This document shows positions 425 through 61,678 of a DNA stretch of 64,000 bases, one piece after another. The position numbers were made by a program, and so were the translations under genes. Source of the DNA: Candidatus Uhrbacteria bacterium (GTDB lineage: Bacteria; Patescibacteriota; Patescibacteriia; UBA9934; UBA10169). The DNA lies in the NCBI GenBank assembly GCA_016187485.1, contig JACPJO010000004.1:56306-120305 (forward strand). Direction: 5' to 3'. The notes under the pieces were generated by a model. It did not search any database, was not told the DNA's origin, and was given only the letters and a program-made list of their open reading frames with translations. Numbering within the stretch: the stretch's first letter is position 1; every line of letters begins with the position of its first letter.

Positions 425-459
425 ACAAATGTATTATAGCAATTTGCTTTTTGTTTTGC

Positions 460-7300: not shown

Positions 7301-10300
7301 GATCTGCGTATTCGTGGCAGAGTTCGTCACTTGATTCACCAGCCAATCCCATGCGTAAGCAAGCGGATTCAATACTTGGCCGGCCACGGCACAGCTGTCC
7401 GGTCGCCCCGTCACTGACGCGGAGAAACTTGCGCGGTCCCCCACGGCTTCAAGAATCACCTCAAGGGGGGAGAGAGCAACGTTCCCAATCCCGCAGGGGG
7501 CCGCATTATCCCGCGTGCGGAAAACCCACGAATAATAATTCCCGTAGTTGAGCGGTATAACCGGTGTGCCGTCCGGATTCGTAACCCCCCAGAGGGGAAT
7601 TCCCGGCACGGTAGGACTTTGCGGCTCCGATGTAATCCCCCCCCAGATCATCACACGATAATACATCGAGGGAGAAAGATCCCCGGCAAGTGTAAGTGCA
7701 ACGCCGTCTTCGACGTCCAATGGATCGTTTACAAAAGAGAGCGCTGTGGGGACAGGAGAGGTCGGATTGAAGGTTGCACAGAACTCATCCTCACAGGCAA
7801 AAACGCGCACATTTGGTTCAAGCACGTTTACCGCATTAACGTGACTCCCCGTAAGCCCCGTCGTTCCTGTTGCTTGCATGGCCGTGTTAAAAACGGCACC
7901 CACTTCTGCGTTCACACAGGCTGTCGTGCACTGTGGGTACGCGAGAGATACGGCGGGGTCGGTGAAATTCACGATCAATTCTTCCGTGTCAGAGATGCTG
8001 TAGCCAATGGGCGTGGCCGTGACAAGTGCCGGCTGTCCCGCATTGGTTTCCTCTTCAGGCACCACAAAGATAGGCTGGAGATTTTCAAAGGCCTGCGCGG
8101 CATTCCCCAAAAACAGGAGCGCATCGTTGATGTCCCCTTCAAGAGGACCGTACTGCGGATCTGCCGTCACGGGATCTGCGGCCTCCTCTGCAGCATCAAG
8201 CGCCGAAGAGAGCGTATCACCGGCAAGCAGCACAGGATTGAGCAGCGAGAAGACCGTGACGGTCTCTGCTGCGAGAGCCGTGTTCGTGCTTGTGAGCGTC
8301 GCAGCTGTTGGCCCTACCAGAGCATGCGCTTCAGGGAGGATCGTTTGCAGCGCCAGGAGAGCATCGGCAAGATCTGCAAGGTTGGTCGGAACCTCATCAA
8401 GAAGAGTTGTTGCCGGCGTGGCCGATTCCGGATCCCCAAGTGTTACCGTGTAGGGCGGATCCACATCAAAGTGGATGTTCTTTCCCTGCCGGTCGAGTTC
8501 CCACGCAAAGGCGTAATCATCAGGGTTGATAAGCACACACGCCCCCGTTGCAGGCAGAGCAACATACGGAATCGTCTCGTCGCTCGTCGCCGTATAATCT
8601 GGCGGACTTACGAGCACCTCTTCTACTTCGCAGGGAGTGGTGCTGGAGCGCGTCTTGAATCGATATGCATACGCCTGTGCCAGAGGAACACCACGGTTGT
8701 TTTTAATACCTGTGGTCGCCGTCGCGCGATACCAGGTATCGGGAAGCAGAGCCGTCGCAGGCGAGAAGATCAGGGAGAGATTCGTCGAGAGCAGAAAGTC
8801 TCCGGCAAGATGTCCTGTGGCAACCGTCTCGCAAGGATCCACTCCCGTCCCCGTACACCGATCTACGTAGAATGAGCCGTTGGTAAACGTAGAGATGTCC
8901 ATGCCGCTCGCGGGAAGGCCGGGAGTGAAGGAAACAGAGACCACCGCATTTGTACAGACGGCATCCCCATCGCTCCACAGTGTTGAGGGCGTGGGGGAAA
9001 TAAATGAGGTATCACACTGCGTACGGATTGTCGGATAGTTCGGGATGGGGCCGGTCGAGAAATGATACACGTACTGGGCGTTCACACTTGGCTCCCCGCA
9101 GGCGGCGGGCGTTGCCGCGCAACTGCCGTTCGAGCAACAAATTTGCGATGCCGTACACAACGAGGGCGTCTCTTGGCAATTCCCTACCGCAAAGAGAAGC
9201 TCATTTGATGGTGCGCCAAGAACCGTCACAGAAACCGGACCTGAAATGGCGCCCGTCGGTACAGGAGCGCTGACGTTCTCCGAAGAAGTGAAGCCAACCG
9301 GGCTTGCGGCTACCCCATCGTGGAAGGTGACACTCACTTCCGACGCGCTTGCGCCAAGATTGCTTCCGTAAATATTCACCGCTGTCCCCACAGGCCCCGC
9401 CACAGGCGCAAGCGCGCAAACGCCGGGTGTTGCAGGCGCCGAGACAACCGTGAAATCCTCCGCGTTACTTTGCGGACTCGTAGGGTAATCCGCACGGCGC
9501 ACAAAAATAGATTTGGGATTGGATTCCTCCGACGTGGTCATACTGGCTGGCACTTGCGCCACAATCGCCGAGTCCGTCCACCATGCATTCTGGCACGCAG
9601 CGGGAAAGTCCGGTTCAAACACCACATCGCCAAGCAAAGGGTCCTGAAAGACAACCACCCCTTCGGTAGATCCAAATCGTTGGCCTAAAATAGTCACGTA
9701 TTGCCCCACGCCACCTTCGGTCGGATGCGCAACACATTGTCCGGTTCCACACTGCGTATCGGACACACAAAGCTGCCCCGCATGTACGATATCGTTTTCA
9801 CACAAGGACCGGCCGGATGTCACTTCGCTGATGAACGGCGCACTGGAGGCATCTTCCGGTGAGAGAACACTGAAGTCAATCGTGTTAGACCCCTCATCAT
9901 TCACGAACACTTGGAGATCGTAGTCGCCCGGAGTACTCGGCGGAACAAGCAAGCTGATAAGCGCATCAAGCCACGTATCCACAGCGGGAAAGAATGACGC
10001 GCGATATACCGACGGACCGCTCAAGTAAAACGCCCCGACCGTCGGATCCTCCCCAAAATTATTTCCCACCACCGAGATGCGCGTAGCGGGCAGGCCGTTG
10101 CCCGGCGTTACCGCACAGAGCCCAGGACGGCGCACGTCATTCACATCAAAGTCTTGGATAAGCGGGCCGAAATCGTCATCCGTTCGGTCGGTAATTCCTG
10201 GCGTCGTGGCCGTCTCTGCTTTTACCACGCCGATCGCCCCATCTGCTGCCTCGGCAGGTACCGCCACAACTACCTGCGTGTTGTTCCAGCTCGGCGCCGG

Positions 10301-11728
10301 ACACGCAATGGGATCCACTTTAATGTCATCCGCCTCGGTATCCGGAGAACCGTAGAAGTACACGATGTTCGCTTGTGCACCAAAACCTGTTCCGTGAATC
10401 GTGACGAAATTATCCGGCGCGCCATTGCCAAGCGAAACCGATTGAATCCGCGGACCCGTGACGCAAACGCCGTTTACACAAAGCCCCGACGTGCAATCGC
10501 TGTTTTGGACACACACCGACGCATCGCAAGAAAGACAGTCCTCCCCGCCGCAATCTATCGCCGCCTCATCTTCATTTTGAATGGTGTCGGTACAGTGCGG
10601 GGCAAGAGCCGTCACGGGCACGCTGGAGGATGTCGTTTGATTACCGGCACAATCTGCCGCCACCGCGCGAATGGCATGGGTACTCGCTGGGGTAAGGTTC
10701 CCGGGCGTCCACGAACCCGATGCAAGACAGCTCACGGGACCGTCCCCCGCACAGGATGCCGGACCCGCAGAATCCACGGCTGTATTATCTACCGTAAAGG
10801 TGGTCACGCCCACACCGGAATCATCTGTAAGACTTGCCTGCAGAGACAGGGGGTAGCCCTCGTAGACAGGCGCGCCAGACGACGGATCAGTAATAGTCAC
10901 GGTTGGCCCCGTTGTATCTATGGCATCTGTCGTGGTGAAACCAAAGGAGCACGGCGCGGCAAGCGAACAGGCAATCTCTACGCCGTCCGCGCTTCGTAGA
11001 CCCTCAGAAACACGTACTTCGTAAGAAGTCGCCGGCTCAAAGCAGCGCTCAGAAGAACTGGGACAAGAAGCATCCGGCAGAACAGTAAGCACACGGCCAG
11101 AAGCGGAGAGATCCGTGGAAATAGCGTCCCCTCCGACAGGCGTCACGGTTATGTAAGGGGCAAGGGCGCTCGCGGACGTGGGAAGGTTTCGATTGAAGAG
11201 AATCTGAATCTCCGCATTTCTCGGCACCGAGGGAACCGAGGCCAGACACCCCCACGACGTAACGACAAATTGTGTGCGGTAGTCGGCAGGACATGTGGCG
11301 CAGGTGCTCAAATTTGTATCCTCCGGCCCCCCAATGACGTTGTTCTGCGACGTGGCGCCCACGAGCGATGAAATGACGAATTGCGCAATAGCAAAGGACG
11401 CCAAAATGATGGCAAGCCCGATGACCGCATTAATAATCATGCCGCGCGCTTTGCGCACCTTTTCCTCTTCTCCCTTCGAGAGCATCCACAAAAACCCGGC
11501 GTACAAGATCATGCCAATCAAGACCACGCCAGAGAACGTAATCGCTGCGCGCACAAGCCGCGCAATGATAAGACGGATGTCCGATGTCCCTCCAAACCCC
11601 GCTTGTGTGGCAAAATCTCCGAGGCCCTCGGTAATCGGCGACGAGGCGGCAAAAACAATATCGGGAAGCCACACGAGTGCGCCGAGAGAGAGGAGGAAGA
11701 CCAGTTGGGAGATGATGCGGCGTTTCAT
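1352..11728 (-). CDS. Giant (3458 aa) secreted, membrane-anchored surface protein. N-terminal signal peptide plus two-helix pilin-like hairpin, IPT/TIG-like beta-sandwich repeats, two arrays of Cys-rich CGDG/CGNG-x-EECDDGN-x-DGCS repeats (Myxococcus cysteine-rich-repeat type), C-terminal von Willebrand factor A domain with a MIDAS motif
   Basis: Single uninterrupted ORF with balanced amino-acid composition. N-terminus MKRRIISQLVFLLSLGALVWLPDIVFAASS, then TM helices GVVLIGMILYAGFLWM and AVIGLAIILASFAIAQFVI. Motifs VTIHGTGFG, VTILGQRFG and VNIYGSNLG are IPT-like. Repeats such as CGNGIREGREECDDNGNLDGNGCSATC occur about 6 and about 10 times. The VWA motif is DLIFLIDYSTSMS...GLGTHTAYGL...VILVSDGES. 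Confidence 0.85.
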   Translation of the reverse strand: MKRRIISQLVFLLSLGALVWLPDIVFAASSPITEGLGDFATQAGFGGTSDIRLIIARLVRAAITFSGVVLIGMILYAGFLWMLSKGEEEKVRKARGMIINAVIGLAIILASFAIAQFVISSLVGATSQNNVIGGPEDTNLSTCATCPADYRTQFVVTSWGCLASVPSVPRNAEIQILFNRNLPTSASALAPYITVTPVGGDAISTDLSASGRVLTVLPDASCPSSSERCFEPATSYEVRVSEGLRSADGVEIACSLAAPCSFGFTTTDAIDTTGPTVTITDPSSGAPVYEGYPLSLQASLTDDSGVGVTTFTVDNTAVDSAGPASCAGDGPVSCLASGSWTPGNLTPASTHAIRAVAADCAGNQTTSSSVPVTALAPHCTDTIQNEDEAAIDCGGEDCLSCDASVCVQNSDCTSGLCVNGVCVTGPRIQSVSLGNGAPDNFVTIHGTGFGAQANIVYFYGSPDTEADDIKVDPIACPAPSWNNTQVVVAVPAEAADGAIGVVKAETATTPGITDRTDDDFGPLIQDFDVNDVRRPGLCAVTPGNGLPATRISVVGNNFGEDPTVGAFYLSGPSVYRASFFPAVDTWLDALISLLVPPSTPGDYDLQVFVNDEGSNTIDFSVLSPEDASSAPFISEVTSGRSLCENDIVHAGQLCVSDTQCGTGQCVAHPTEGGVGQYVTILGQRFGSTEGVVVFQDPLLGDVVFEPDFPAACQNAWWTDSAIVAQVPASMTTSEESNPKSIFVRRADYPTSPQSNAEDFTVVSAPATPGVCALAPVAGPVGTAVNIYGSNLGASASEVSVTFHDGVAASPVGFTSSENVSAPVPTGAISGPVSVTVLGAPSNELLFAVGNCQETPSLCTASQICCSNGSCAATPAACGEPSVNAQYVYHFSTGPIPNYPTIRTQCDTSFISPTPSTLWSDGDAVCTNAVVSVSFTPGLPASGMDISTFTNGSFYVDRCTGTGVDPCETVATGHLAGDFLLSTNLSLIFSPATALLPDTWYRATATTGIKNNRGVPLAQAYAYRFKTRSSTTPCEVEEVLVSPPDYTATSDETIPYVALPATGACVLINPDDYAFAWELDRQGKNIHFDVDPPYTVTLGDPESATPATTLLDEVPTNLADLADALLALQTILPEAHALVGPTAATLTSTNTALAAETVTVFSLLNPVLLAGDTLSSALDAAEEAADPVTADPQYGPLEGDINDALLFLGNAAQAFENLQPIFVVPEEETNAGQPALVTATPIGYSISDTEELIVNFTDPAVSLAYPQCTTACVNAEVGAVFNTAMQATGTTGLTGSHVNAVNVLEPNVRVFACEDEFCATFNPTSPVPTALSFVNDPLDVEDGVALTLAGDLSPSMYYRVMIWGGITSEPQSPTVPGIPLWGVTNPDGTPVIPLNYGNYYSWVFRTRDNAAPCGIGNVALSPLEVILEAVGDRASFSASVTGRPDSCAVAGQVLNPLAYAWDWLVNQVTNSATNTQISVATYLPDGTLTATLDTDTDRALSCSAQCLRTGTISYAAVCGDGIVNPFYEDCDVALDPIGCSPTCQTVGVTACANPATDLLCCGNGIREGREECDDNGNLDGNGCSATCLNEGSTAAGLTCNDGTISQFDTVTPDGRSGGEECEDSNTISGDGCSAQCLREGSTPSADIGVHCGNGDVEEGEDCDDGGITSGDGCSANCLAEPLGPGVWSRTTPTGILNGVCGSNGREYNVTTGAGEECDDGNTTSGDGCSAQCQNEGSSVFYPVPSFCGNGGLPELGEECEISSSADDGVGPYDPLQTLEIEAVATQAVVDGEVRTTLRATGSDDATETSAFGTAEIGLSCSCTTDATCGEPALLGCGVSDCCFDRPAVQESTTVPLATTSAGVCRNALVRVAFTQQMGEESILEDNGTKHIVLTAFGEDTNGNGAYDSADVRYTTASDCPTNTTPVIVQDFSDRPWYARLWQNILRVVAPRAWAGSVSCIVASNLSIEDVETNPDEFITRVSVLYNQILEPQTLYRILVEADANYTDANPDGVLSRWGVGLVGNSSVFANFEASWSRIFATGNTICDVDFVQVEDLSASPGLFTQANTAHPLAAEAMTLIGPLAQPIVSVPGVYAWAWSGTSVSTTWGWNSSVADPNIVVVTPGASTSANTTATASTANPAINGVENVMAQLRIMEDTVLSPTTVGRIVGGTVEERVFLCENPWPAVGHFPFVDSAWYAGDPAPGITLTAPYTNFSAFYCRDAGERGTSDDLPALSVVQKTQNIASPGIFKEFLFAVDDPDIHDAIGVRVLSNSNYLSPAEWFAGQGFVGSPAAESVDGFEGVRDGRTVYVSAPNTGAALYPNMYAIAYNEGASAETRQIYQAMLGAWEFAGARDLTTGLLTVTNGRVCATPLPSGDMDPIEVNGELVACSTDAECAAVATGGSPALCDADKDKLRRDLKRLTDVRTIGEALTSYGETHRHCSVTKDQLCFEDSDCSGAEECVASVPTLGSGTYIPSFSLSAWPSWQAQLANALGRAVPTDPLNTFVSCPDGYDAETCYNALAAQAICPADSHVYTYRSIGGEEFWLSTDLEFGVAPPAETTLAWASPVDVDSPLPNLGTYYVGNANLPSPFASTPVLGGFQNARTCNGATFTATNVCGDGLIGSGEICEVGETTSVSCSTNVCANAVNLSFNGLPCTTASDCGSNGSCVATSGTRAVPCVGPSDASGLGCQAFQTASTSAACIPNYCGDGVIQGSETCDDGPLNGQYGFCATNCTWTSAVFCGDGLIGGAEACDCGSAASFNLLAPTPQCRTASASYLNGLYSTDPAYGCAADCSGTAPSCGDGTVNGAAEECDGTNEQWNGKLCVNGDPCTTNAECADGSLCGDPALSWAGVCPASTASDTLGLPQTRTRVCNGLGLPPYTNACRWPTTTGIPGGWQACAPVGSCGNGIPEGIEECDDGDTDEQDACRNNCTQNVCGDGVRNVGVESCDLGGQNGVPCNPAYSDTCNYCSATCTYQTVTGGYCGDGVINGGEVCDGASVPSYCFKGAINPTERVRGEVCGTDADCPFDYTCEALVGTCNGGSATAVDGEYVYNGFPCAQPPPETFDYNKACGDPIFNPDTFGSCVLQDCNASCSLACPFTLEQGAVLAQSETAVNRTTSVDLRSYLSEDPATAGAPDNATLYFPACTVGSALYASVSFDDVEPPNIDLIFLIDYSTSMSYEIDGTPPEADESTRLDIVKEALVDAADELYDAFPNGNLASGIVIFNEVNPATDVLAENPLPNASFTASKSELVLNLSQLANPGTGLGTHTAYGLSRAYELLTTDRPDTDVRIVILVSDGESDDLLAAAAASDTLDTLENTVIYTVAFTSNDDEIAVNNHFSSDVCGVDFYELNNSDGTPECAPPADGVEYAYNAPDADGFQAVVDTITANILGLSLNYETTTGFAGGVASEGDDVLLPFPPGFECPASGAFQIPFHINFNGSGTVNLSDLRLEYCPQ

Positions 11729-11737
11729 GCAAGGTTT

Positions 11738-13648
11738 CTAGGGAGCGGGAGGAGAGAAAATGGGCGGTAGGGGACACGAGCCGGAGGCAAGCGCATTTCC
11801 GTCGCAACAACTTGGCTGTGAGGCATCCACGGCGCAATCCCCCGGCGGGCCATAGGCGGGGTAATAACAAATTTGATAGGCCGACTCCACTTCGTTATTG
11901 ATAAAAGGGTAGTACAGCTGTGTGATGGTATCCTCCAGGTAGTCCAGGAACGACCCGTGCTCCAAAACCGCAACGGTCCCCACGACTTCTGGCTCCGTCG
12001 CAGGCGGGACTGCGGGCACCGTCACTCCCTCCGCAAGAGGCCGATACCAAATTTCATGGAACGGGCGCGGAGCAATGCCCATATTCGTGTTCGTTAGTGA
12101 CCCTACACGCATCGGCACATCAAACGTCACGCGCACGGGGGCAGAAATATCCACGTCGGGCTGATTTAACGTGGGAAGCAAGGACGCGATGGCGGGGCGA
12201 TCGAGGTTTACATCATCCGTCGTTGAAAAAAATGACCAAAAGTTGTCTATGGCAAGATCGTCGTCCGGCTCTGGCGTCAGTGCCGCGTTGGCTGGCGGCC
12301 CATTGGCAATAAGATTTTGGTCGTCGCCGTTTTTCCCACCTCCATCCAGAGAATTCCCTGCCACGTCCACCACGCCATCGTAGCCCACAGCCGTAAAGAG
12401 CGCTTGAGGCGGTTCGGCGCCGAGCGTGGCGGCACGCACCAGAAGCGTAAAGTCATCATTCCCTGGAAGACAGAAGATTGCTCCTCCGCAAGCGTTCTCG
12501 CCGCATTGGTCAAAACTCGTAAATTCGGTCGTGCGGTACCCATTTGTGATGCGCCATGTGCCTTCTACCGGTACCGCGTCACTATCGTCGTCACGCACTT
12601 GGAGGTTTGAGAAAAATCTTGCCGGCGTGGCGGTGGGACGATGCACTCCCGCCGTGGCGGTAGGGTCTACCGCCTCATTGAAGTTCACTTGCACCACGAT
12701 ATTGCGGTCTACAGTCCGATCGGCAACAGGAATAACGCTTTGCACATAGGGCGGGGTAATATCCACCACCGTGGAGACCGTAAATGACCAGGCATAGCCC
12801 GTGGTATTGGGCGGAGGGAAGGCCGGAAACGTTGTCGTAAGGTCAGGGCCAAGTTTCAAAATATCGGCATCCAAAAGGACAGAGTAGTTTTGCTCTTCTT
12901 CTGCGCTTCCAATAAACTCCACCGGGTCAAAGACAAAGATTTTTTTGTCTGCTGTATACGTGACGTCTACGGCATCTTGCACAAGAGCGCCCGCAACCCC
13001 ATCAGCCGTACGGTAAATTTTCACATTGCCCGCATTCACTTTACCCCGCGGGACTTCGGCCACCGGATCAATCGTGCCCGGAGCAATGAGGGAGTCAACA
13101 AACATCGATTCTTTAAATGTCACGATAATTTTTGTGTTGCGCGGGATCTCTACCGCTCCGCGAGCGGGATAATGATCTTCGATAATCCCCTGCCCCAGCG
13201 CTCCCGAAAGCGGTTCAATAAAGCCGGCAATGTTGGTAGAGGTAGATGGCTGGCGAAGCCCGAGCGAGCGCAGAAGCGCACTTAAGATAAACGAAGCGAT
13301 TCCGTAAGACGCAAGCACGATAGCCAAACCGATGACGGCGGTGCGAATGATGCCGCGCGCGGTTTGGATTTTCTTGGGATCGCCACCTGCCAGCATGTAG
13401 CGAATACCGGCGTACACAATGAGACAGACAAAGACGATGCCCAAAAACCCAATGACCGCACGAACAATCTTTGCTGCAATCACGCGAACGTCTTGTGTGG
13501 GCAGACCCTGAGCGCCAATGTCAGAAAGATTTGCGCCAAGCCCTGCTTCTGCGCCGAATGCTATCGACGAGAGAAAAAACAAACCCGCCGTCACGCTAAG
13601 AGTGATGGCTAAAAAAAGAGCGCTGCGTTTTGCACCCACAAACCGCAT
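11738..13648 (-). CDS. 636-aa secreted, membrane-anchored protein. Its N-terminal signal peptide plus two-TM hairpin module is paralogous to that of the giant protein
   Basis: N-terminus MRFVGAKRSALFLAITLSVTAGLFFLSSIAFGA...VRVIAAKIVRAVIGFLGIVFVCLIVYAGIRYMLAGGDPKKIQTARGIIRTAVIGLAIVLASYGIASFI aligns residue-by-residue with the giant protein's N-terminus. Its stop lies 10 nt upstream of the giant gene's start. Confidence 0.75.
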   Translation of the reverse strand: MRFVGAKRSALFLAITLSVTAGLFFLSSIAFGAEAGLGANLSDIGAQGLPTQDVRVIAAKIVRAVIGFLGIVFVCLIVYAGIRYMLAGGDPKKIQTARGIIRTAVIGLAIVLASYGIASFILSALLRSLGLRQPSTSTNIAGFIEPLSGALGQGIIEDHYPARGAVEIPRNTKIIVTFKESMFVDSLIAPGTIDPVAEVPRGKVNAGNVKIYRTADGVAGALVQDAVDVTYTADKKIFVFDPVEFIGSAEEEQNYSVLLDADILKLGPDLTTTFPAFPPPNTTGYAWSFTVSTVVDITPPYVQSVIPVADRTVDRNIVVQVNFNEAVDPTATAGVHRPTATPARFFSNLQVRDDDSDAVPVEGTWRITNGYRTTEFTSFDQCGENACGGAIFCLPGNDDFTLLVRAATLGAEPPQALFTAVGYDGVVDVAGNSLDGGGKNGDDQNLIANGPPANAALTPEPDDDLAIDNFWSFFSTTDDVNLDRPAIASLLPTLNQPDVDISAPVRVTFDVPMRVGSLTNTNMGIAPRPFHEIWYRPLAEGVTVPAVPPATEPEVVGTVAVLEHGSFLDYLEDTITQLYYPFINNEVESAYQICYYPAYGPPGDCAVDASQPSCCDGNALASGSCPLPPIFSPPAP

Positions 13649-21666: not shown

Positions 21667-22179
21667 ATGCGCCCACTCATCGTGGGGCTTGGCAATGTCG
21701 GCAAGGAGTATGAGCAGACACGGCATAACGTGGGATTTGAAATCGTAGACGCACTTGCAAAAGGAAAAAATCTTTCATGGAAAAAGGAGGCGGCACGACA
21801 CGCGTTTGTGGCCACATCGCGAGAAGTGATTTTGGCAAAGCCCACCACCTACATGAACCGCTCGGGAGAGGCTGTACGAGAACTTGTGTCGTTTTACAAA
21901 CCCTCCCGCATCGTGGTGATCTACGATGACGCCGACTTGCCCATGGGAGAAATCCGTGTGCGCGGAGACGGTCGGAGTGCAGGCCACAACGGAATTGCGT
22001 CCGTCATTGAACATATTGGAGAGGAGGCGTTTACGCGTGTGCGTGTAGGCATCGGCCGGCCAGAAAACAAAGATATTCCTCTTGAAGATTGGGTGCTCGG
22101 AACGTGGAATGAGGAGGAATGGAAAAAGATAAAAAATATTGTGGAGGAGGCCACACAAAAAGTCGAAATCCAGCCGTAG
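21667..22179 (+). CDS. pth: Peptidyl-tRNA hydrolase
   Basis: MRPLIVGLGNVGKEYEQTRHNVGF... Starts 1 nt after the der stop. Confidence 0.9.
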   Translation: MRPLIVGLGNVGKEYEQTRHNVGFEIVDALAKGKNLSWKKEAARHAFVATSREVILAKPTTYMNRSGEAVRELVSFYKPSRIVVIYDDADLPMGEIRVRGDGRSAGHNGIASVIEHIGEEAFTRVRVGIGRPENKDIPLEDWVLGTWNEEEWKKIKNIVEEATQKVEIQP

Positions 22180-22202
22180 GGCTGGATTGAGGAGAAAGAA
22201 CA

Positions 22203-23825
22203 CTACTTGATGTCTTCGCCGTAGCAGCTCTGGGCTCTGCCTTCGGCGTTCTTGGTGCAGAGGGTGGGAATGCCCCCGCAGTAGTACCGGTCGTAGAGGG
22301 TGCGCTTCTCGCGACCCTTCACGTTGACGGCACCGGGCACGCACTCGCCCTTGAGGACATCGCCCGTCAGCATCGCCTCGAGCGCGCGCTGGGCGTACCC
22401 AGCTTTCTTCTCGGCGGCGAGAGCGCGCTCGTCAGCCTTGCCGAACTTGGTCTCGGCCAAGTGCGCCGAAGCGGCAGACTCCGCCGCAGCGGCTTCAGCA
22501 GCCGAGCGCAGTTCCTCCCGACGGGACGTTTCCTTCGAGAAGACGGTGATGAGACTGGCCACGTGGTCGTTCATCCACTCCGACGACTCGCCGATGCTCG
22601 CGATCTGCTCGCTCTGGGTTGCGTCCACGCGGCCCTGGTGCATCCAGAACGCAACGATTCCAGTAGCAAGGACGGTAAAGAGGCCGATCACGATCGTCCG
22701 CACACGCTTGAGCGCGTGGAGAGCCAGAGAGAGGCGTTGACCGAGATCTTCCACCTGCTTCACGGACGGGAGCGCGATGACCGGCATCGGCCGCTCCGTC
22801 CCGGGGGTCGTCTGCTGCCTGGACGGCGGCGGCTCGGGGTAGGCCAGCCTGCGCAGTGCCACCATCCCCTGCTCCATGGTCATGAGCCGATCCCACATAC
22901 CGTCGAAGACCGCACGGTTGTACGCCGGCTCTCCGCTTCCGTCGCAGATGACCGCGACGATCTGCGTCCACATGCCCGTGAGGTCCGGACGACTGATCGT
23001 GAAGGGGAACTTCGTCGCCAGGATGGCCCAGACATTCTGGGCGTTCATCGCCTTGGGAGCATCCCCCATCCCGAGGACCTCGGCCCACAGGTAGTCGCGG
23101 CGCAAGTTGGGCAGACGCCACAGATCTTCGGGACTGGGCGGCGCCTTCGCTGCCTGATCTTCACGCTTGAGCTGCTTCCAGATCGTGTCAAAGCTCGCCC
23201 GTCCGAGGGGAGGAAGATCACCCTGGCAGAGCATCAACTCCACCATCAGGTTGAAGTCAAGACGCATCTGCGGAAGAGCGACGATGTTGGGGAAGTGCCG
23301 CTGAAGCAGCCGCCAGGCGTTGTCCTCGTTGATGTCCCGAGGGTCCATCCCCTCGATCTCGAAGACCCGGCAGAGATACGCCCACCGGACGTCCAGGCCC
23401 CTCCAGTTGGCCTCAGGGTTCGGATCCGGCGCCACGGGCGGGCCGTTGCCCCCTCCGTTCGCTTCAAGTTCCGCCGCCACGCGGTGCATCTCGTCGGGGT
23501 CGAAGCCCTCCGTTTCCTCATCGTTCCCGATGCCATCGTGGATGGCTGCGGCCAGCACGTCCCGCCGACGGTCACCCTGGAACAATGGCCCCTCCGGAAT
23601 GCCGGGAATGGATCCCCCCTCTTCGTCTGCTGTCTGCACCGGCGGGGCACCACCAACCACCGGCACGATGCCGGGGCGCGGAAGATCCGTCGAGCCGGGG
23701 GCAGCCTCTCCCTCATCCCCAGGCGGTCGGGGAAGAAATCCCTCGTCTTCCACGATCTGTGCGGGACCCTTCTGGCCCTTGTTTCCATCGTTGCTTGAAA
23801 TGAGCATTCTGTTGTCTCCCTCCAT
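22203..23825 (-). CDS. Hypothetical 540-aa protein with compositionally foreign (very high GC3) codon usage. Disordered Pro/Gly/Glu N-terminus, two tandem aromatic-rich repeats of about 85 aa, one TM helix, a coiled-coil Ala/Glu segment and a Cys-rich C-terminus
   Basis: Balanced amino-acid composition on the minus frame. The overlapping plus-strand ORFs are Arg-rich artefacts. Repeats are ...WRLLQRHFPNIVALPQMRLDFNLMVELMLCQGDLPPLGRASFDTIWKQL and ...VWAILATKFPFTISRPDLTGMWTQIVAVICDGSGEPAYNRAVFDGMWDRL. TM helix IVIGLFTVLATGIVAFWMH. Confidence 0.6.
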   Translation of the reverse strand: MEGDNRMLISSNDGNKGQKGPAQIVEDEGFLPRPPGDEGEAAPGSTDLPRPGIVPVVGGAPPVQTADEEGGSIPGIPEGPLFQGDRRRDVLAAAIHDGIGNDEETEGFDPDEMHRVAAELEANGGGNGPPVAPDPNPEANWRGLDVRWAYLCRVFEIEGMDPRDINEDNAWRLLQRHFPNIVALPQMRLDFNLMVELMLCQGDLPPLGRASFDTIWKQLKREDQAAKAPPSPEDLWRLPNLRRDYLWAEVLGMGDAPKAMNAQNVWAILATKFPFTISRPDLTGMWTQIVAVICDGSGEPAYNRAVFDGMWDRLMTMEQGMVALRRLAYPEPPPSRQQTTPGTERPMPVIALPSVKQVEDLGQRLSLALHALKRVRTIVIGLFTVLATGIVAFWMHQGRVDATQSEQIASIGESSEWMNDHVASLITVFSKETSRREELRSAAEAAAAESAASAHLAETKFGKADERALAAEKKAGYAQRALEAMLTGDVLKGECVPGAVNVKGREKRTLYDRYYCGGIPTLCTKNAEGRAQSCYGEDIK

Positions 23826-23900
23826 AGGTCGCCAGACCCACAGGAGCCTCGGATGCTAACAAGAGAACTTCCTCTCGTCAAGCATCACAAGTACAATAGC

Positions 23901-25019
23901 ATGCACCCTATGTTGACGACGGAGTTGCAAAAAACTGACCTCCCCTTCGCCCTCGCCGCCGCCCGTTTTCCCAAATTCGGCGCCAAACGCCTGGCGCGCC
24001 TCAAGAAGGCTTTTGGGAATTTCGAGACCGTATGGGGTGCCGAGGCAAGAGACCTGGCGCGGGCGATCGAGCACATGGCGCTTGCCGAGGAGTTTGTCGC
24101 GGCACGACGAACCATCGAACCAGCAGAAGAAGTCGACAGGCTTGCGCAGACAGGCGTGTCAGTGGTGTGGATCGAAGAAGAGACGTACCCAGCTCTTCTG
24201 CGCGAAATCCATGACCCACCTCCCTTCCTTTTTCATCGCGGCGCCCTTCCAAAACCAGCCGACGTTCTTCTGTCCGTTGTGGGAAGCCGTCACATGAGTC
24301 GTTATGGCGCAGCTGTCCTTGAGATGTTTATGCCAGAACTCGCGCGCTCCGGTGTGCACATTGTAAGCGGTCTTGCACTTGGGTGCGACGGGTACGCACA
24401 CGAACTTACCGTGAAGCACCGCGGATGCACCTATGGAATTGTCGCGGGCGGATGTGACACCGAGAGTATCACGCCCGGACAAAATCGCGCGCTGGCGCAC
24501 GCCATGATCGCCGCAGGGGGTGGGGTGATCTCTGAACAACCTGTGGGTACCGCATCCTATCCGTCATCTTTTCCGCTGCGCAACCGATTGATTGCTGGCA
24601 TCAGCCGCGCCACATTAGTGATCGAGGCCGCTGAAGCGTCCGGCTCGCTTATCACTGCGCGTCTGGCGCTCGAAGAAAATCGCGACGTCCTTGCCGTTCC
24701 GGGTCCCATCAATGCTCCTATGAGTATCGGCACAAACCGGCTCGTGCGTTTTGGTGCGCATGTTGTTACCTCGGCCGAAGACATCCTCTCTCTTTTAGAG
24801 CTTGCCCCCACCACCCCTGTACCCGCGCGCATCGTCGAGCCACAAAACGCAACCGAAGCGGCTCTCCTCCCCCACCTCAACACGCACGGCATACATGTAG
24901 ACGAGCTTGTGCGGGCCAGTCGCCTCCCTACCACCCTCGTTCTCCAAACCCTTACCGCCATGGAACTGCGCGAGGTCGTTGTCCATATCGGAGGGAATCA
25001 TTATCGGTTGAACGGGTAG
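23901..25019 (+). CDS. dprA: DNA processing protein A (DprA/Smf)
   Basis: VVGSRHMSRYG...SGLALGCDGYAH...GGCDTESITPGQNRALAHAMIAAGGGVISEQ...FPLRNRLIAGIS. The track ORF starts at 23853. The ATG at 23901 is more plausible. Confidence 0.85.
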   Translation: MHPMLTTELQKTDLPFALAAARFPKFGAKRLARLKKAFGNFETVWGAEARDLARAIEHMALAEEFVAARRTIEPAEEVDRLAQTGVSVVWIEEETYPALLREIHDPPPFLFHRGALPKPADVLLSVVGSRHMSRYGAAVLEMFMPELARSGVHIVSGLALGCDGYAHELTVKHRGCTYGIVAGGCDTESITPGQNRALAHAMIAAGGGVISEQPVGTASYPSSFPLRNRLIAGISRATLVIEAAEASGSLITARLALEENRDVLAVPGPINAPMSIGTNRLVRFGAHVVTSAEDILSLLELAPTTPVPARIVEPQNATEAALLPHLNTHGIHVDELVRASRLPTTLVLQTLTAMELREVVVHIGGNHYRLNG

Positions 25020-25100: not shown

Positions 25101-27593
25101 ATGAGTAAACTCCTCATCGTCGAGTCGCCGACGAAAGCAAAAACGATCTCGAAATTTTTGGGACATGACTATCATGTTCTTTCTTCGTACGGTCACGTGC
25201 GCGATCTCCCCAAGAGCGATCTTGGGGTGGACATCGAGCACGGATACGCTCCCACATATGAAGTATCGCCGGACTCGCGCAAACACGTGACAGCGCTCAA
25301 AAAGGCCGCAAAGGAAGCAGACGAAGTCCTCTTTGCGACGGATGAAGACCGTGAGGGAGAGGCTATCTCCTGGCACCTGGCAGAGATTCTTGGTATGGAA
25401 CCCCGCGAGGTAAAACGCGTCGTATTCCACGAAATCACCAAGCGCGCCATCGAGGAAGCGCTCGCCCATCCGCGGCCGCTCGAAATGCCGCTCGTAGACG
25501 CCCAGCAAGCCCGGCGTATTTTGGACCGCCTCTACGGTTACGAAATCTCCCCCCTCCTGTGGCGAAAGATCGCGCCAAAACTTTCCGCCGGCCGCGTGCA
25601 AAGTGTTGCCACGCGCATCATTGTGGAACGCGAACGCGAACGCATGCGATTCGTGCGCGCCGGTTTTTGGGACGCACACGGCGTGTTTTGCAAATCAGAT
25701 GCCTGCTTCCCCGCACGACTGGTGGAGGTGAAAGGCGCGCGCTTGGCAAATGGAAAACATTTTGACGCCGCAACCGGGCTCCTTACAAAGGAAGCAAAAG
25801 AAAAAGGATTTGTCGTCCTTGATGAAAAAACTGTGCGCGATCTTGTAGAGACATGGAAAACCACGTCGTGGAGTGTAAAGAGCGTGGAAGAGAAGCCGGC
25901 CGTCTCACACCCAAGTGCGCCGTTTACCACAAGCACTCTCCAACAAGAGGCCGCACGCAAACTCCGCTTATCGTCCAAAGAAACCATGCGCTCTGCCCAA
26001 TCGCTCTACGAGCGGGGGTTCATCACCTACATGCGCACGGATTCCACGACGCTTTCCGCACAAGCGATCTCTGCGGCGCGCTCCATCGTGACCACGCGTT
26101 TCGGCAAAGAAAACCTCCCAGCGGAGGCACGCCAATACCAGACAAAAGTAAAAAACGCGCAAGAAGCGCACGAGGCCATACGGCCCTCCGGAGAAGCATT
26201 TGCCGATCCGGAAGAAGTAGCCAAAGAGATGAATCCTGCCGAGGCAGCGCTTTATGATTTGATTTGGAAACGTACGATCGCCTCGCAAATGATCTCCGCC
26301 TCACTTCGGCACACCACCGTAGAAATTTCCAACAACGAAGCGCTTTTCTCCGCAACAGGGAAAATTGTTGATGTGCCGGGGTATCTGCACGTGTATATGG
26401 AGGGGAAGGACGAAACGGAAGAAGAGGCTGAAGCAACTCTGCCGGCGCTTGTCGCAGGCGACAAACTTACGGCACAAGAGCTCTCCCCAGAATCGCACGA
26501 AACAAAACCACCTGCGCGTTATACGGAAGCCTCTCTCATTAAAATGCTCGAAGCAAACGGCATTGGCCGCCCAAGCACATTTTCTTCCATCATCTCGACC
26601 ATCATGACACGCGACTATGTGCGTAAGGTAGGCCAAGCGCTTGTGCCGACATTCAAAGCGTTTGCGGTCGTGCAGCTTCTGGAGCAATGGTTTACACATC
26701 TGGTAGACATTGGCTTTACGGCAGAAATGGAGGAGGGGCTCGACGCCATTTCGCGCGACGAAAAAGAGGCGACGCCGTTTTTGGATGCCTTCTACCACGG
26801 GGGCACGTATCCGGGTCTTGCGGGCATGCTGAAGGCCGAGATTGATCCAAAAGAAGCGTGCACCATCGCGCTCTCCCAACATCAGGGTTCTCCGGTCAAT
26901 ATTCGCGTGGGACGCTTCGGTCCCTACTTGGAGTGGCGAGACCTTCGCGTATCCTTGCCCGAAGACATGTCTCCCGAGGATGTCACGCCCAAAGCGGCCG
27001 AAGAACTCCTCTCGAAAAAAGCCGAGGGACCACGAAAGCTTGGAGACGATCCGGAAGGCGGACTCCCTATCTATGCGATGAGCGGACGCTTTGGCCCTTA
27101 CGTCCAGCTTGGAGAAAAATCCGATGAGAGTAAGCCAAAGATGAAAAGTTTGCCGCGGGGCATGAGTGAGCAGGAAGTTTCTCTTGAACAAGCCGTGTAC
27201 TTATTGTCTCTCCCGCGCGAAATCGGCACACATCCAGAATCCTATGAGCCCGTCGTGCTTGATCTTGGACGGTTCGGCCCCTACATCAAATGCGCAAGTG
27301 AGAGCCGAAGTCTGAAAGCGGAAGATTCCATCTTCACATTGACGCTCCCGCGCGCGCTCGAGCTTCTGGCGCAAGAGAAAGTGGGTCGTGGCGGACGGCG
27401 CATAACGAAAAAGACTGTCTTGAAAGATCTTGGGGAAGGCCTGCAGATTCTCGATGGCCGCTACGGTCCCTATGTCACGGATGGAAAAAAGAATGCGTCG
27501 CTCCCCAAAGGAACAAGCGCGGAAGACATGACCGTAGAATCCGCCCAGACGCTTCTCTCCGAGAAAAAGACAAAGCGCAAGAAAAAGTCTTAG
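25101..27593 (+). CDS. topA: DNA topoisomerase I
   Basis: TOPRIM N-terminus MSKLLIVESPTKAKTISKFLG, an active-site Tyr region and repeated GRFGPY C-terminal motifs. Confidence 0.92.
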   Translation: MSKLLIVESPTKAKTISKFLGHDYHVLSSYGHVRDLPKSDLGVDIEHGYAPTYEVSPDSRKHVTALKKAAKEADEVLFATDEDREGEAISWHLAEILGMEPREVKRVVFHEITKRAIEEALAHPRPLEMPLVDAQQARRILDRLYGYEISPLLWRKIAPKLSAGRVQSVATRIIVERERERMRFVRAGFWDAHGVFCKSDACFPARLVEVKGARLANGKHFDAATGLLTKEAKEKGFVVLDEKTVRDLVETWKTTSWSVKSVEEKPAVSHPSAPFTTSTLQQEAARKLRLSSKETMRSAQSLYERGFITYMRTDSTTLSAQAISAARSIVTTRFGKENLPAEARQYQTKVKNAQEAHEAIRPSGEAFADPEEVAKEMNPAEAALYDLIWKRTIASQMISASLRHTTVEISNNEALFSATGKIVDVPGYLHVYMEGKDETEEEAEATLPALVAGDKLTAQELSPESHETKPPARYTEASLIKMLEANGIGRPSTFSSIISTIMTRDYVRKVGQALVPTFKAFAVVQLLEQWFTHLVDIGFTAEMEEGLDAISRDEKEATPFLDAFYHGGTYPGLAGMLKAEIDPKEACTIALSQHQGSPVNIRVGRFGPYLEWRDLRVSLPEDMSPEDVTPKAAEELLSKKAEGPRKLGDDPEGGLPIYAMSGRFGPYVQLGEKSDESKPKMKSLPRGMSEQEVSLEQAVYLLSLPREIGTHPESYEPVVLDLGRFGPYIKCASESRSLKAEDSIFTLTLPRALELLAQEKVGRGGRRITKKTVLKDLGEGLQILDGRYGPYVTDGKKNASLPKGTSAEDMTVESAQTLLSEKKTKRKKKS

Positions 27594-29020
27594 TGATGGT
27601 CTTTCTTTTCGTGTCCTCCGCCTCCATGACCCCCTGCGGGTTTTTTTGGTTTTCCAAAAAAGAGGTTGCCGACCACGGGAAAAAGGCGCTCGCCGCGCTC
27701 TTCCCACGGCTTCGGACGCTCGTGCGGAGGGTGCAGGTGATCCAAACCAAAGCCAAAGCCAAAATATTTTCTTGTCCAACTACCAAATCCGGCAAGTTGA
27801 TTTACTACGCCATCTGTCCACTGTTCCCCATAGTATAGGATGGGTTCGCCAAGCACGCGCCACGCGGAGCGCAGAAGATACCCGGCGGAAAGTCCCGTGA
27901 ATGCCGCCGTGCCCAGCAGCCCGCGACCGACGTGCCCCAAAAACGGATCGCCTTTCACCTCCCCCTTTCCCACCCTCTCAAGCACTCGTTCATCTTGTGT
28001 CATCTCCCACAGCAGCTGGTTCATCTCAAGACGTTTGACGGGGTGCCACCACGATGGCGGATGAACAACGTCGCCCGTCACGGTACTTTCTATGTGCCCG
28101 TGCGCATTTTCACGATACGGCGCCACAAGTTTTTTGGTTTCTTCCGAAAGCCAAGCGTCGCCGTAGTTCTTCCACCCCTTCTCGGGAAGTCCGAAAACAT
28201 CCTGCAGAGAAAATCCCTCTTTGTCTTCCACCGTCGTGCGTTCGTGCATCTTGTCCGACGTCATCTTCATGAACCGCTCAAAAGCGCCCTTCGCTTTTTC
28301 AAGCGTGCGCGCATAGGCAGCCTCGGATGCTTTGAGCCGCTGCTTCACGTCGGCAAAATCCAGCTCTTCATCGTTGCGAAGATTTTGGATCGTCGTGTGT
28401 AATTCTTCTCGCGCCTTATAAAACTTCAGAACAGCTTCTTGGTCACCATCAAGCTTTTCATCGCTCTGCCGGTCTCGAACCCGAATCTCTTTCACCTCTT
28501 TATCACGTTGGAGTGTCCGCAAGATGGCCAGTTCCTGCAAAATTTTGAAGTAGTCCGGCGGATCGCCCTCGTGGTGATCGATAGTGACGAAGTGAAGATC
28601 CGGGTCGGTGGCATAGGTATCTCCCACGCGAATGCCTATGTCTGACATCCCCACAGCATCCTGCAAACGAACAGCCGTACTCTCATCTGCTTTGTAGACT
28701 CCCACATTCAACTCTACGACCCCATCGGTACGACGCACATATTCTCGCGCTAAATGCGCGCCGGGATTACGCTCCCCGCGATTTTTTGAAATGGCGCGTT
28801 CCTGTGCGGTTTTAAGCGCATCGAGAATCGCACGGTTTGTAAGCACCTCCATCGCCGCCGTCCTTCGAAGGGACGCTCCCGCCTGTTTTTCGGCGTCCTC
28901 GAGCACCTGACGAGCATGGCGTTCCCGTTCGCGAAGTTCCGCCATCGTTGCCGCGTGCGCCATGTCCGGATTGCCGAGGGAAGCTCCAGGTCTTCCGTGA
29001 TCAGGCGAATGCGTCGTCAT
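27590..29020 (-). CDS. Hypothetical 476-aa protein with a Gly/His-rich C-terminal tail (FGFGFGLDHLHPPHE...GGHGGGGHEKKDHH)
   Basis: Long ORF with host-like codon usage. No family recognised. A possible TM helix near the C-terminus. Confidence 0.5.
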   Translation of the reverse strand: MTTHSPDHGRPGASLGNPDMAHAATMAELRERERHARQVLEDAEKQAGASLRRTAAMEVLTNRAILDALKTAQERAISKNRGERNPGAHLAREYVRRTDGVVELNVGVYKADESTAVRLQDAVGMSDIGIRVGDTYATDPDLHFVTIDHHEGDPPDYFKILQELAILRTLQRDKEVKEIRVRDRQSDEKLDGDQEAVLKFYKAREELHTTIQNLRNDEELDFADVKQRLKASEAAYARTLEKAKGAFERFMKMTSDKMHERTTVEDKEGFSLQDVFGLPEKGWKNYGDAWLSEETKKLVAPYRENAHGHIESTVTGDVVHPPSWWHPVKRLEMNQLLWEMTQDERVLERVGKGEVKGDPFLGHVGRGLLGTAAFTGLSAGYLLRSAWRVLGEPILYYGEQWTDGVVNQLAGFGSWTRKYFGFGFGLDHLHPPHERPKPWEERGERLFPVVGNLFFGKPKKPAGGHGGGGHEKKDHH

Positions 29021-33550: not shown

Positions 33551-33627
<77 letters not shown>

Positions 33628-33636
33628 ATTGTTCGG

Positions 33637-33713
33637 GGCTGGGTAGCTCAGTTGGTTAGAGCGAGGGACTCATAAGCCCTAGGTCGCCGGTTCGATTCCG
33701 GCCCCAGCTACCA
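33637..33713 (+). tRNA. tRNA with CAU anticodon: elongator Met or Ile2 (lysidine)
   Basis: GGCTGGGTAGCTCAGTTGGTTAGAGCGAGGGACTCATAAGCCCTAGGTCGCCGGTTCGATTCCGGCCCCAGCTACCA. Elongator-type acceptor stem. Its identity cannot be fixed from sequence alone. Confidence 0.8.
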
Positions 33714-60477: not shown

Positions 60478-60861
60478 ACAACAGTCAACTCTAGCGCGAC
60501 CAAGCAATCTGTCAATAAAAACACGGAAAACAAACAACGTCGCGTTTGACTTCCCTTGTCGTAAAGTCAAAGCGACGTTGCATGGCGACCCCAGAGATTG
60601 CACGGGCATTGAATCCACCTTTCGGAGGACGGTATGTGAACGGACGTCTCTGACAGCCGAAGCCGTCTTCACGTTGTTTACATGGCCCTTACCCGCGTGA
60701 CCAGCCCTCTCTCCTCGAAGAGAGGGTATCGGACAAAATGGTTTGAAAGTGTGCCCGCGGTTCCTCTGAAGTCACTTAAGAGTGTATCACTCAAATATGG
60801 ATTTGTCGTGAGACGCAAGGAAAAATACTCCGTGGTTATCCCACCTGTATCCACAGATTAT

Positions 60862-61472: not shown

Positions 61473-61678
61473 CTTCATGGTCTCTTTTAAAGATAGCTTA
61501 CCCATGAGCCCGCTCGTCTGCATAATCAAAGGCAACAAACGCAATGTTCGTGTAGAGCTTAAATGCCTTTGTGCCCATGCAAGCTGTCATATCTGTATTT
61601 AGGTTATCAGAACACGAGAATGCGTCAAGGCTTGCTTTTCCACAGAGATTTGTATATTATTTTGGCCAAATTCTTCTT

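Follow-up and report, generated by a model that had tools for sequence, protein, structure and literature searches.

Does the gene wedged between pth and dprA in this Candidatus Uhrbacteria contig owe its atypical base composition to a recent import, or is G/C richness a lasting property of the locus itself? Recent horizontal transfer is the routine reading of an atypical GC3, and the original prediction, which described the gene as compositionally foreign, implied such an origin. We address the question by considering the gene and its protein, its base composition, and its counterparts at the same position (hereafter the slot) in related genomes. The window denotes the whole analyzed stretch of DNA, 64,000 nucleotides in length.

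The minus-strand open reading frame at positions 22203-23825 was confirmed and encodes 540 amino acids, which is the form annotated by NCBI as a hypothetical protein (MBI2484853.1 / HYW18_01745, exact look-up). The likelier start is the ATG at 23807, yielding an orphan membrane protein of 534 aa (22203..23807, minus strand), with the ATG at 23825 as the upstream alternative. The likelier start codon is preceded, at a distance of 7 nt, by a Shine-Dalgarno-like GGAGGGAG read off the sequence (23815..23822, minus strand), and the Logan gene call P0001 is identical to the 534-aa form. The divergent spacer common with dprA contains a TG-extended promoter-like site, TTGACG-17-TAGCAT (23853..23881, minus strand), which is a consensus match only, the scan having found one vs 0.3 expected. 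Directly downstream of the stop codon, a scan detected a terminator-like hairpin of 9 bp with a CUAC loop and a T-rich tail (22157..22188, minus strand; fold z = -3.2), which overlaps the pth stop codon on the other strand. The ratio dN/dS relative to the sister-species ortholog equals 0.30 overall and 0.06 in the second of two internal repeats, indicating purifying selection. Because of this constraint, the Shine-Dalgarno motif, the promoter-like site, the hairpin, and the NCBI and Logan gene calls, the reading frame is a genuine protein-coding gene with its own promoter-like and terminator-like sites. As originally described, it lies opposite to its neighbors, convergent with pth (peptidyl-tRNA hydrolase, 21667..22179, plus strand; gene calls and Pfam PF01195, E 5e-60) and divergent from dprA (23910..25019, plus strand, in the 369-aa form given by NCBI; Pfam PF02481 and PF17782; P0003 100% identical). 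The spacers, anticipated at about 25 nt on each side, measure 23 nt to the pth stop codon and 27 nt to the longest dprA ORF; the probable true start codons, at 23807 and 23910, are 102 nt apart.

All parts of the predicted protein layout were recovered, namely the N-terminus, the tandem repeats, the single transmembrane helix, the Ala/Glu helix and the C-terminal cysteines; their coordinates below refer to the minus strand and to the 540-aa numbering. The acidic cytoplasmic N-terminus, extending to approximately residue 135 (23421..23807), has a high content of Pro, Gly, Asp and Glu and is probably disordered (pLDDT 23-31, below ~30). It is followed by two tandem helical domains of ~90 aa at residues 137-229 (23139..23417) and 232-326 (22848..23132), which align with 27% identity over 88 ungapped residues (internal repeat E 2e-10), the second being predicted by modelling to pack four main helices into a compact bundle. 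The transmembrane helix at residues 377-395 (TIVIGLFTVLATGIVAFWM; 22641..22697), assigned from hydropathy and flank charges, has a KRVR-type flank of charge +4 on its N-terminal side, which implies an N-in/C-out topology. The extracytoplasmic helical 'stalk' at residues 396-494 (22344..22640) is Ala/Glu-rich, with long helices predicted at low confidence; the C-terminal part of the protein contains 17% Ala and 11% Glu, and an Ala-rich segment is common to all positional orthologs. The last 46 residues hold four cysteines (C495, C516, C523 and C534) that constitute a C-terminal module (22206..22343), delimited by hhalign and alignments. The full-length AF2 model is unreliable (pLDDT 39.7). With the inferred topology, a small disulfide-bonded knob would be exposed at the cell surface on a helical stalk, with a transmembrane coupling to the helical domains in the cytoplasm. 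Such a protein could serve in recognition or attachment, with a partner cell, a phage or an envelope ligand as the target, and undergo rapid sequence turnover.

The GC3 outlier status was borne out by a per-gene comparison. The slot gene has a GC3 of 0.80 vs a mean of 0.594 (sd 0.034, maximum 0.67) among the 51 other window ORFs of at least 120 aa each (z = 6.1). Given its amino acids and the codon usage of the flanks, the expected GC3 equals 0.604 and the observed value is 0.789 (z = 8.8). Codon shares reach 100% for CAC, 95% for each of AAG, CAG and AAC, 89% for TAC, 83% for ATC and 79% for TTC, while GAC (63%), GAG (70%) and CTC (44% of Leu codons) are lower; the earlier wording of 'nearly exclusive' codons is thus apt for AAG and TTC but overstated for GAC, GAG and CTC. 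The Arg codons AGG, AGA and CGG, rare in the host, are also used. Within the gene, GC3 is lowest in the N-terminal region (0.63 in the first 60 codons) and highest in the four-cysteine module (0.88), and the compositional boundaries coincide with those of the coding sequence. The window contains a second outlier ORF at 60947-61339. Translational selection was rejected as the source of this bias, since highly expressed genes (tuf, fusA and ribosomal-protein genes) use codons as other genes do, e.g. AAG at 0.51 vs 0.42. An effect of opposite-strand location or read-through was likewise rejected because the control gene at 27590-28963, a variable opposite-strand gene of the same cluster without a Pfam domain, has a normal GC3 (0.57), and its counterparts in lineages L010 and L013 are not GC-rich. 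In the GC-rich stretches, neither an Rfam family nor a tRNA was found.

The claim that the protein has no recognisable family held up in homology searches, as no match was obtained in Pfam, PHROGs, NCBIfam, PADLOC or PDB sequences, nor any fold or family match. Among 5.8 billion clusters and 1.84 billion representative proteins, the sole proteins retrieved were P0001/P0126, which are the same gene, and P0002 from the sister species; phmmer against the 1.84 billion representatives, profile searches, GTDB genomes and two metagenome scans yielded nothing beyond P0001, P0002, P0123 and P0124. No match to the protein was present in phages, plasmids, IMG/VR, GTDB genomes or JGI metagenomes, and a phage, plasmid or viral origin was rejected on this basis. 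Flanking repeats are absent from positions 21900-24100, neither mobile-element scars nor an integrase were found, and the nearest tRNA is located at 18698. No second copy, paralog or silent cassette was detected by blastn and tblastn of the gene vs the 64-kb window. Several assignments found no support: a diversity-generating retroelement target (no template repeat in the 64-kb window, no repeats in 21900-24100), membership in a defence system (no PADLOC match), and a RodZ-like anchor with HTH_25/XRE and RodZ_C domains (no Pfam match). The sole trace is a hit of the slot protein of lineage L019 to the NCBIfam RodZ model, with an E of 0.2 and 11 bits vs a cutoff of 208.

The phylogenetic distribution of the slot gene determines the age of its arrival. 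In the more distant Uhrbacteria and Parcubacteria L015, L016 and L018, pth and dprA are directly adjacent, and the slot gene is therefore an insertion rather than the ancestral arrangement. The slot is occupied at the same position, on the same strand and with the same architecture in L001 (the sister species), L010/L011, L012, L013 and L019, the family being defined here by a transmembrane helix, an Ala-rich stalk and a C-terminal four-cysteine module encoded on the opposite strand between pth and dprA. Wherever the contig of a sampled subclade lineage extends into the slot, the gene was found there; the L001 contig stops within the cytoplasmic part, L020 provides only a 38-aa N-terminal fragment, and the L017 contig falls short of the slot. 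Absence was confined to lineages outside the subclade, and no patchy presence was seen among close relatives. Even where DprA is only 49-57% identical, the slot carries an opposite-strand gene without a Pfam domain. Similarity of the slot proteins reaches 82% for P0002, 54% between L012 and P0124, 36% between L012 and L019 (E 2e-29) and 27% between L012 and L013 (E 5e-9), and, wherever detectable, it drops in step with DprA divergence in the DprA identity matrix, which argues for vertical descent.

For the window protein, homology to the L012/L013/L019 family is suggested by position, strand, architecture and one modest profile match. Profile comparison with the distant positional orthologs detects similarity in the four-cysteine module alone (hhalign over 49 columns with all four cysteines aligned, E 5.8e-5, probability 66%). 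BLASTP against the distant members gives E 0.28-0.9, and the comparison of the cytoplasmic repeat with the helical domain of L012/L013 is not significant (E 0.23). Overall, the analysis shows a very narrow orphan family, in which the slot arose by an old opposite-strand insertion into the ancestral pth-dprA junction within one Uhrbacteria subclade. Since then, the gene appears to have been inherited vertically and to have diverged much faster than its neighbors under one retained architecture. In this architecture, a variable acidic disordered cytoplasmic N-terminus and zero, one or (here) two ~90-aa four-helix domains precede one transmembrane helix, after which come a helical stalk, Ala-rich and ~100-150 aa long, and a C-terminal module of ~45 aa with four cysteines.

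The G/C excess accompanies the gene throughout this distribution. After correction for amino acid composition, observed vs expected GC3 equals 0.72 vs 0.36 in L010 (z 12.6), 0.63 vs 0.54 in L012 (z 4.0), 0.74 vs 0.53 in L013 (z 10.1) and 0.62 vs 0.36 in L019 (z 11.0), and the L001 gene has a GC3 of 0.80 vs 0.59, with the flank composition of L019 and L001 based on one gene or partial genes. In each lineage, slot-gene GC3 thus lies above flank GC3, which spans 0.37-0.60, and does so even at 0.37. The enrichment is strongest at third positions and extends to first and second positions in most orthologs, most clearly at the second; GC2 is raised in the slot orthologs, and GC1 in L012 and L019. 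In all lineages GC3 climbs from 5' to 3' along the gene, from its lowest values in the fast-evolving N-terminus to 0.74-0.88 in the last 50 codons. Because GC3 lies above the flanks in each lineage, the anomaly is old and maintained rather than an un-ameliorated recent import. Of the original description of the gene as foreign, the compositional outlier, the lack of a family and the insertion therefore stand, whereas recent import does not, the same slot gene with raised GC3 being present in each lineage and no donor having been found.

Comparison with the sister species (82% nucleotide identity), where the slot gene likewise adjoins dprA, suggests how the composition may be maintained. The N-terminal region is the most divergent part (dN 0.26, dS 0.77), and the dS of the 5' third is close to that of the flanks (0.77 vs 0.8-1.0) at a GC3 of ~0.8 in both species. 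Past codon ~245, identity leaps from ~84% to 97-100%, third positions included, and ~125 codons carry zero synonymous differences; synonymous divergence is minimal where GC3 is maximal. Such mosaic identity hints at recombination, although it is observed at one contig end (L001) and a strain-chimeric assembly could give the same pattern.

The G/C enrichment would then be a long-lived property of the locus in every lineage. Its most likely cause would be locus-specific GC-biased fixation tied to recurrent, gene-conversion-like recombination of the 3' two-thirds of the gene between related lineages. Recombining bacterial genes tend toward higher GC3, but the relation is weak, with an R2 of 0.03-0.09 in S. 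pyogenes (PMC4450053). The excess of +0.1 to +0.36 in the slot genes is far above this published effect. As a whole, the combination of an old insertion, vertical descent, a surface protein and GC-biased fixation with recombination is the best explanation we can offer, and we hold it tentatively, at somewhat below an even chance.

A different account of the same pattern is an integration hot-spot with repeated cassette replacement. The junction would time and again take up versions of the gene, or membrane-protein genes unrelated to it, and their source would be a GC-rich pool outside the sampled genomes, for instance Uhrbacteria of higher GC content or the elements they carry, so that each copy is relatively young and un-ameliorated. 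The shift toward GC affects all three codon positions and resembles that of a gene taken from a genome of 60-65% GC; the host-rare Arg codons fit such a source, as does the existence of GC-richer members of the clade (dprA GC3 of 0.71 in L020). Replacement is also conceivable because the L010 protein is without detectable similarity to any other and has a different layout without the cytoplasmic part, even though the DprA of L010 is closer to those of L012 and L019 than that of L013 is. The near-identical 3' segment in the sister species either shows or mimics recent exchange. Nevertheless, searches of the 1.84 billion representative proteins and of collections of phages, plasmids and viruses yielded no donor, the site is without flanking repeats, an integrase or a tRNA, and the compositional boundaries match the coding sequence. 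Detectable slot-protein similarity follows the DprA tree, and the 5' third has diverged synonymously like the flanks at high GC3 in both species. We consider repeated replacement rather unlikely.

Selection on synonymous sites of the slot mRNA, whether for stability or structure, for decoding accuracy or for avoidance of A/U-rich nuclease or regulatory motifs, agrees with the concentration of high GC3 in the most conserved module and its minimum in the N-terminus in all lineages, with the lowest synonymous divergence where GC3 is highest, and with a bias upheld over long divergence. It is improbable nonetheless, as this preference is not shared by the genome's highly expressed genes, the raised GC1 and GC2 are not predicted by codon choice, and the lack of any synonymous difference over ~125 codons is too extreme. 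The reading implied at the outset, a single recent acquisition from a high-GC donor that is still un-ameliorated, would account for the strong codon-usage outlier, the lack of a family and the tight fit between two housekeeping genes; it has very little probability left given the same site in a sister species with flank dS of ~0.8-1.0, a gene of the same architecture where DprA is only ~50% identical, and searches that found neither a donor nor a mobility signature.

An artefact is close to negligible as an explanation, whether it took the form of an assembly chimera, of GC-rich DNA without coding function or of a true gene lying on the plus strand (the 445-aa ORF 22461-23798, which is long and in the same codon register). 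Five independent Logan assemblies from different sequencing runs match both junctions, flagged earlier as possibly chimeric, with 100% identity, and the dprA junction is syntenic in the NCBI assembly of another species (GCA_016177675.1). The minus-strand frame has a dN/dS clearly below 1 and conserves the transmembrane helix, repeats and cysteine motif; the antisense ORF is interrupted in L010, L012 and L019 and no longer than in synonymous codon-shuffled controls (P = 0.09), and the stretch holds no Rfam family or tRNA. The antisense ORF exists because the slot gene avoids TTA, CTA and TCA codons.

At present, the slot gene encodes an orphan hypothetical protein with a reproducible compositional signature. 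The GC-richness is kept over a span in which DprA falls to ~50% identity and host GC3 drifts from ~0.6 to ~0.37. This would be consistent with a locus-specific regime in CPR bacteria in which a fast-evolving surface protein is subject to a stable, strongly GC-biased hot-spot of recombination or gene conversion, or else to a mechanism dedicated to its exchange; we regard this broader proposal as unlikely. If true, it would imply that a gene can retain an unusual composition as a stable trait, and that such composition need not date a foreign arrival. Should complete genomes confirm the GC-richness across lineages, the locus would offer a clean natural setting in which to test GC-biased fixation against synonymous-site selection in bacteria and would supply a fast-evolving, probably surface-exposed candidate for partner or phage interaction in the uncultivated Uhrbacteria.

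Several known systems share individual features with this locus. Horizontally acquired genes of atypical composition, including genomic islets, are judged by the amelioration model (Lawrence and Ochman). Like such islets, the slot gene is a lineage-restricted GC3 and codon-usage outlier between conserved housekeeping genes; in contrast to them, it is old, remains GC-rich across flank GC3 of 0.37-0.60, and lacks mobility genes, a tRNA, repeats and a donor. Its G/C richness in six lineages of widely differing composition is not predicted by a simple model of acquisition and amelioration.

Among membrane proteins, bitopic ECF anti-sigma factors are N-in/C-out single-pass signalling proteins, and the slot protein resembles these and related signalling proteins in its ~90-aa four-helix cytoplasmic domain, one transmembrane helix and extracytoplasmic C-terminus. 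Assignment to this group was not supported, given that it has neither a recognisable anti-sigma domain nor the HxxxCxxC zinc motif and that no cognate sigma gene is adjacent; in all loci the neighbors are a LytR-family gene, der, pth, dprA and topA. TolA-like proteins consist of an anchor, a long Ala/Glu/Lys-rich helix and a small C-terminal domain; the slot protein shares the membrane anchor, the long Ala-rich helix and a small Cys-containing C-terminal domain, a resemblance only, but has a large cytoplasmic N-terminal part and no sequence or profile similarity to them. CPR bacteria are not known to possess a Tol-Pal system or an outer membrane. The PE_PGRS-type genes of mycobacteria are GC-rich polymorphic surface-protein genes and offer an analogy of phenomenon only, in that a gene is GC-richer than its genome and encodes a fast-evolving, probably surface-exposed protein, whereas the slot gene is single-copy, without paralogs or silent cassettes in the window, Gly-Ala arrays or any sequence relationship.

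The closest parallel to the preferred reading of GC-biased fixation is recombination-associated GC enrichment under the hypothesis of GC-biased gene conversion (Lassalle et al. 2015, PMC4450053). The effect in the slot gene is far larger than the genome-wide trends of that study, and recombination here is suggested by one contig, but the two phenomena agree in that third positions are affected most and other positions too, that optimal-codon selection is not responsible, and that sequence identity is mosaic.

The gene between pth and dprA is an ancient, clade-restricted insertion whose product is an orphan membrane protein that evolves fast; the GC-rich composition of the gene is retained in lineage after lineage. 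The 540-aa minus-strand ORF at 22203-23825 (MBI2484853.1 / HYW18_01745, a hypothetical protein of a Candidatus Uhrbacteria MAG at NCBI) is real and is present in the ORF list. The likelier true start is the ATG at 23807, which sits 7 nt past GGAGGGAG and gives the 534-aa product of the Logan gene caller. The gene looks like its own transcription unit, since it has a promoter-like site upstream (minus strand, 23881-23853) and, past its stop codon, a T-tailed, terminator-like hairpin that overlaps the pth stop. A 445-aa antisense ORF was rejected as a real gene, being no longer than in the synonymous-shuffle control and interrupted in all but one of the four distant orthologs examined; it is a by-product of TTA/CTA/TCA codon avoidance. 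No Rfam families or tRNAs were found in the region of the gene. Elsewhere, a tandem tRNA-Met (CAT) pair with 10 nt spacing at 33551-33713 (+) adjoins an opposite-strand tRNA-Leu (CAA).

All protein features named in the original prediction were recovered. These are an N-terminus rich in Pro, Gly, Asp and Glu that was modelled with very low confidence, a tandem pair of ~90-aa repeats (aa 137-229 and 232-326; E 2e-10, 27% identical over 88 residues without gaps), a single TM helix (aa 377-395) with an N-side flank charge of +4, an Ala/Glu-rich segment C-terminal to it that is predicted to be helical, and four Cys within the last 46 residues. Searches of Pfam, PHROGs, NCBIfam, PADLOC and PDB sequences were all empty, as expected from the proposed absence of a recognisable family. 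CPR genomes commonly encode orphan hypothetical proteins.

The gene is a clear GC3 outlier, at 0.80 compared with a mean of 0.594 (sd 0.034, maximum 0.67; z = 6.1) for the window's remaining 51 ORFs of 120 aa or more. With codon usage as in the flanking genes and the amino-acid composition of this protein, a GC3 of 0.604 is expected, against 0.789 observed (z = 8.8), and therefore the shift is one of codon choice and not of composition. AAG, CAG and AAC account for 95% each of their codon sets, CAC for 100%, TAC for 89%, ATC for 83% and TTC for 79%; the predicted near-exclusive codon use holds for AAG and TTC but was overstated for GAC (63%), GAG (70%) and CTC (44% of Leu). A second outlier (GC3 0.83, z = 7) is the 130-aa ORF at 60947-61339 (-) (MBI2484901.1 / HYW18_02000, a singleton cluster), which also prefers G/C-ending codons and had no match in Pfam, PHROGs, NCBIfam, PADLOC or viral sets. 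It lies in an interval of ~900 nt flanked by the gene at 59746-60672 and by the plus-strand gene at 61571-62278, which we provisionally take to be ndk from its own sequence. Among the larger ORFs of the window, a giant 3458-aa ORF (1352-11728, minus strand) has a signal-like N-terminal sequence and is followed by a 636-aa ORF (11738-13648) with a similar beginning.

An assembly artefact was rejected. Independently assembled contigs from five sequencing runs (SRR12113401, -25, -28, -29 and -32), all 100% identical to the window, cover the junction with pth, and those of four runs also cover the junction with dprA. The order topA-dprA-slot gene is repeated at ~82% nucleotide identity in another Uhrbacteria assembly, GCA_016177675.1; measured against that ortholog in the minus-strand frame, dN/dS comes to 0.30 overall and to 0.06 within repeat 2. 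The dprA of this sister species (388-1513 of its contig L001) is split by a frameshift into two ORFs (187 and 202 aa), owing to pseudogenisation or to an indel in the assembly.

Contigs of further relatives were fetched with DprA homologs as anchors. In lineages with 49-57% identical DprA, an opposite-strand gene without Pfam domains separates pth from dprA, or immediately precedes dprA where the contig stops, in an otherwise conserved order LytR-der-pth-[slot]-dprA-topA. Its products comprise 278 aa in L010/L011, 513 aa in L012, 473 aa in L013 and 378 aa in L019. In L020, whose DprA (57% identity) is the nearest after the sister species, a 38-aa divergent, acidic Pro-rich N-terminal piece (2-115, minus strand) precedes dprA (243-1340, plus strand); the latter has a GC3 of 0.71, so GC-richer clade members exist. 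The pth gene directly adjoins dprA in L015, L016 and L018 (DprA ~46% identical). A single insertion, long ago, in the subclade's ancestor would explain this most simply. The label 'foreign' is right in part: it fits a compositional outlier and clade-restricted insertion, but not a recent arrival, as the same slot is filled in lineages of the subclade with raised GC3 in each.

Identity of the slot proteins falls with DprA distance, from 82% in the sister species to 54% between L012 and its homolog P0124, 36% between L012 and L019 (E 2e-29) and 27% between L012 and L013 (E 5e-9). A single TM helix, an Ala-rich C-terminal part of 145-193 aa (16-24% Ala) and four similarly spaced Cys in the last ~45 residues are common to the proteins of L012, L013, L019 and P0124. 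That of L010 has the TM helix and the Ala-rich part, with nine Cys in all, of which four fall within the last ~42 residues. The window protein matches the profile of distant members in the C-terminal module only (hhalign E 5.8e-5, probability 66%, all four Cys aligned), and similarity between their cytoplasmic helical domains was not significant. The cytoplasmic part is absent in L010, shorter in L019, a single helical domain in L012 and L013, and a pair of such domains in the window protein.

The compositional anomaly is a trait of the slot family. Slot GC3 compared with flank GC3 is 0.79 vs 0.60 in the window, 0.80 vs 0.59 in L001, 0.72 vs 0.37 in L010, 0.63 vs 0.52 in L012, 0.74 vs 0.53 in L013 and 0.62 vs 0.37 in L019, with composition-corrected z-scores of 4.0 to 12.6. 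GC2 is raised too, and GC1 in some orthologs. Along the gene, GC3 is in every lineage minimal in the first 60 codons (near host level) and maximal in the last 50 (0.74-0.88).

A recombination-linked GC-biased process is the favoured cause that would sustain this excess, and we put forward the overall picture of ancient insertion, maintained GC and such a process tentatively. Recombining bacterial genes tend weakly towards higher GC3 (R2 0.03-0.09 in S. pyogenes; PMC4450053). Against the sister species, dS is 0.77 in the first 150 codons, matching the flanks (0.8-1.0). Past codon ~245, mismatches drop from ~10 to 0-4 per 60 nt, third positions included, up to the end of L001; over its final ~340 nt (2379-2716, window 23045-22708), inside the gene, identity rises from ~64-88% to 96-100%. 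This near-identical 3' part reflects recent exchange between co-occurring lineages, or else the contig end is a chimera of strains.

Two rivals are still in play: repeated cassette import into the slot, which we regard as unlikely, and selection on synonymous sites of the slot gene, which is more doubtful still. Synonymous divergence between slot-gene lineages is saturated and host GC3 very different, and therefore a single old import should have ameliorated. Translational selection was rejected, with the highly expressed tuf, fusA and ribosomal-protein genes lacking the G/C-ending preference. An orientation effect was examined with an internal control, the opposite-strand gene without Pfam domains in a second variable slot of the cluster, between topA and relA/spoT (145 to 538 aa across lineages), where GC3 is ordinary or low, at 0.57 for the window gene (27590-28963, minus strand) and 0.30 in L010 (9678-11294). 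Counterparts lie in L013 (7260-8561), L014 (3744-4700), L015 (9863-10300) and L016 (8540-9133). Neither translational selection nor orientation therefore explains the anomaly. Recent import is contradicted by synteny, and a recent genomic islet by the lack of patchiness within the subclade, of mobility signatures and of a donor.

The positive-inside flank, even C-terminal Cys count and Ala-rich helix suggest an N-in/C-out topology. The protein would carry, on a stalk anchored to cytoplasmic helical domains, a small disulfide-bonded knob; its rapid divergence would suit a role in recognition or attachment. An ECF anti-sigma factor was dismissed, with no such domain, motif or sigma-factor neighbour, as were RodZ, whose membership tests the protein fails, and a DGR target, with no template repeat. 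A GC excess that persists at one locus is out of the ordinary and open to testing. Among known systems, the protein resembles TolA-type anchor-helix-knob proteins and the gene resembles PE_PGRS-type GC-rich surface genes, in both cases by analogy only.
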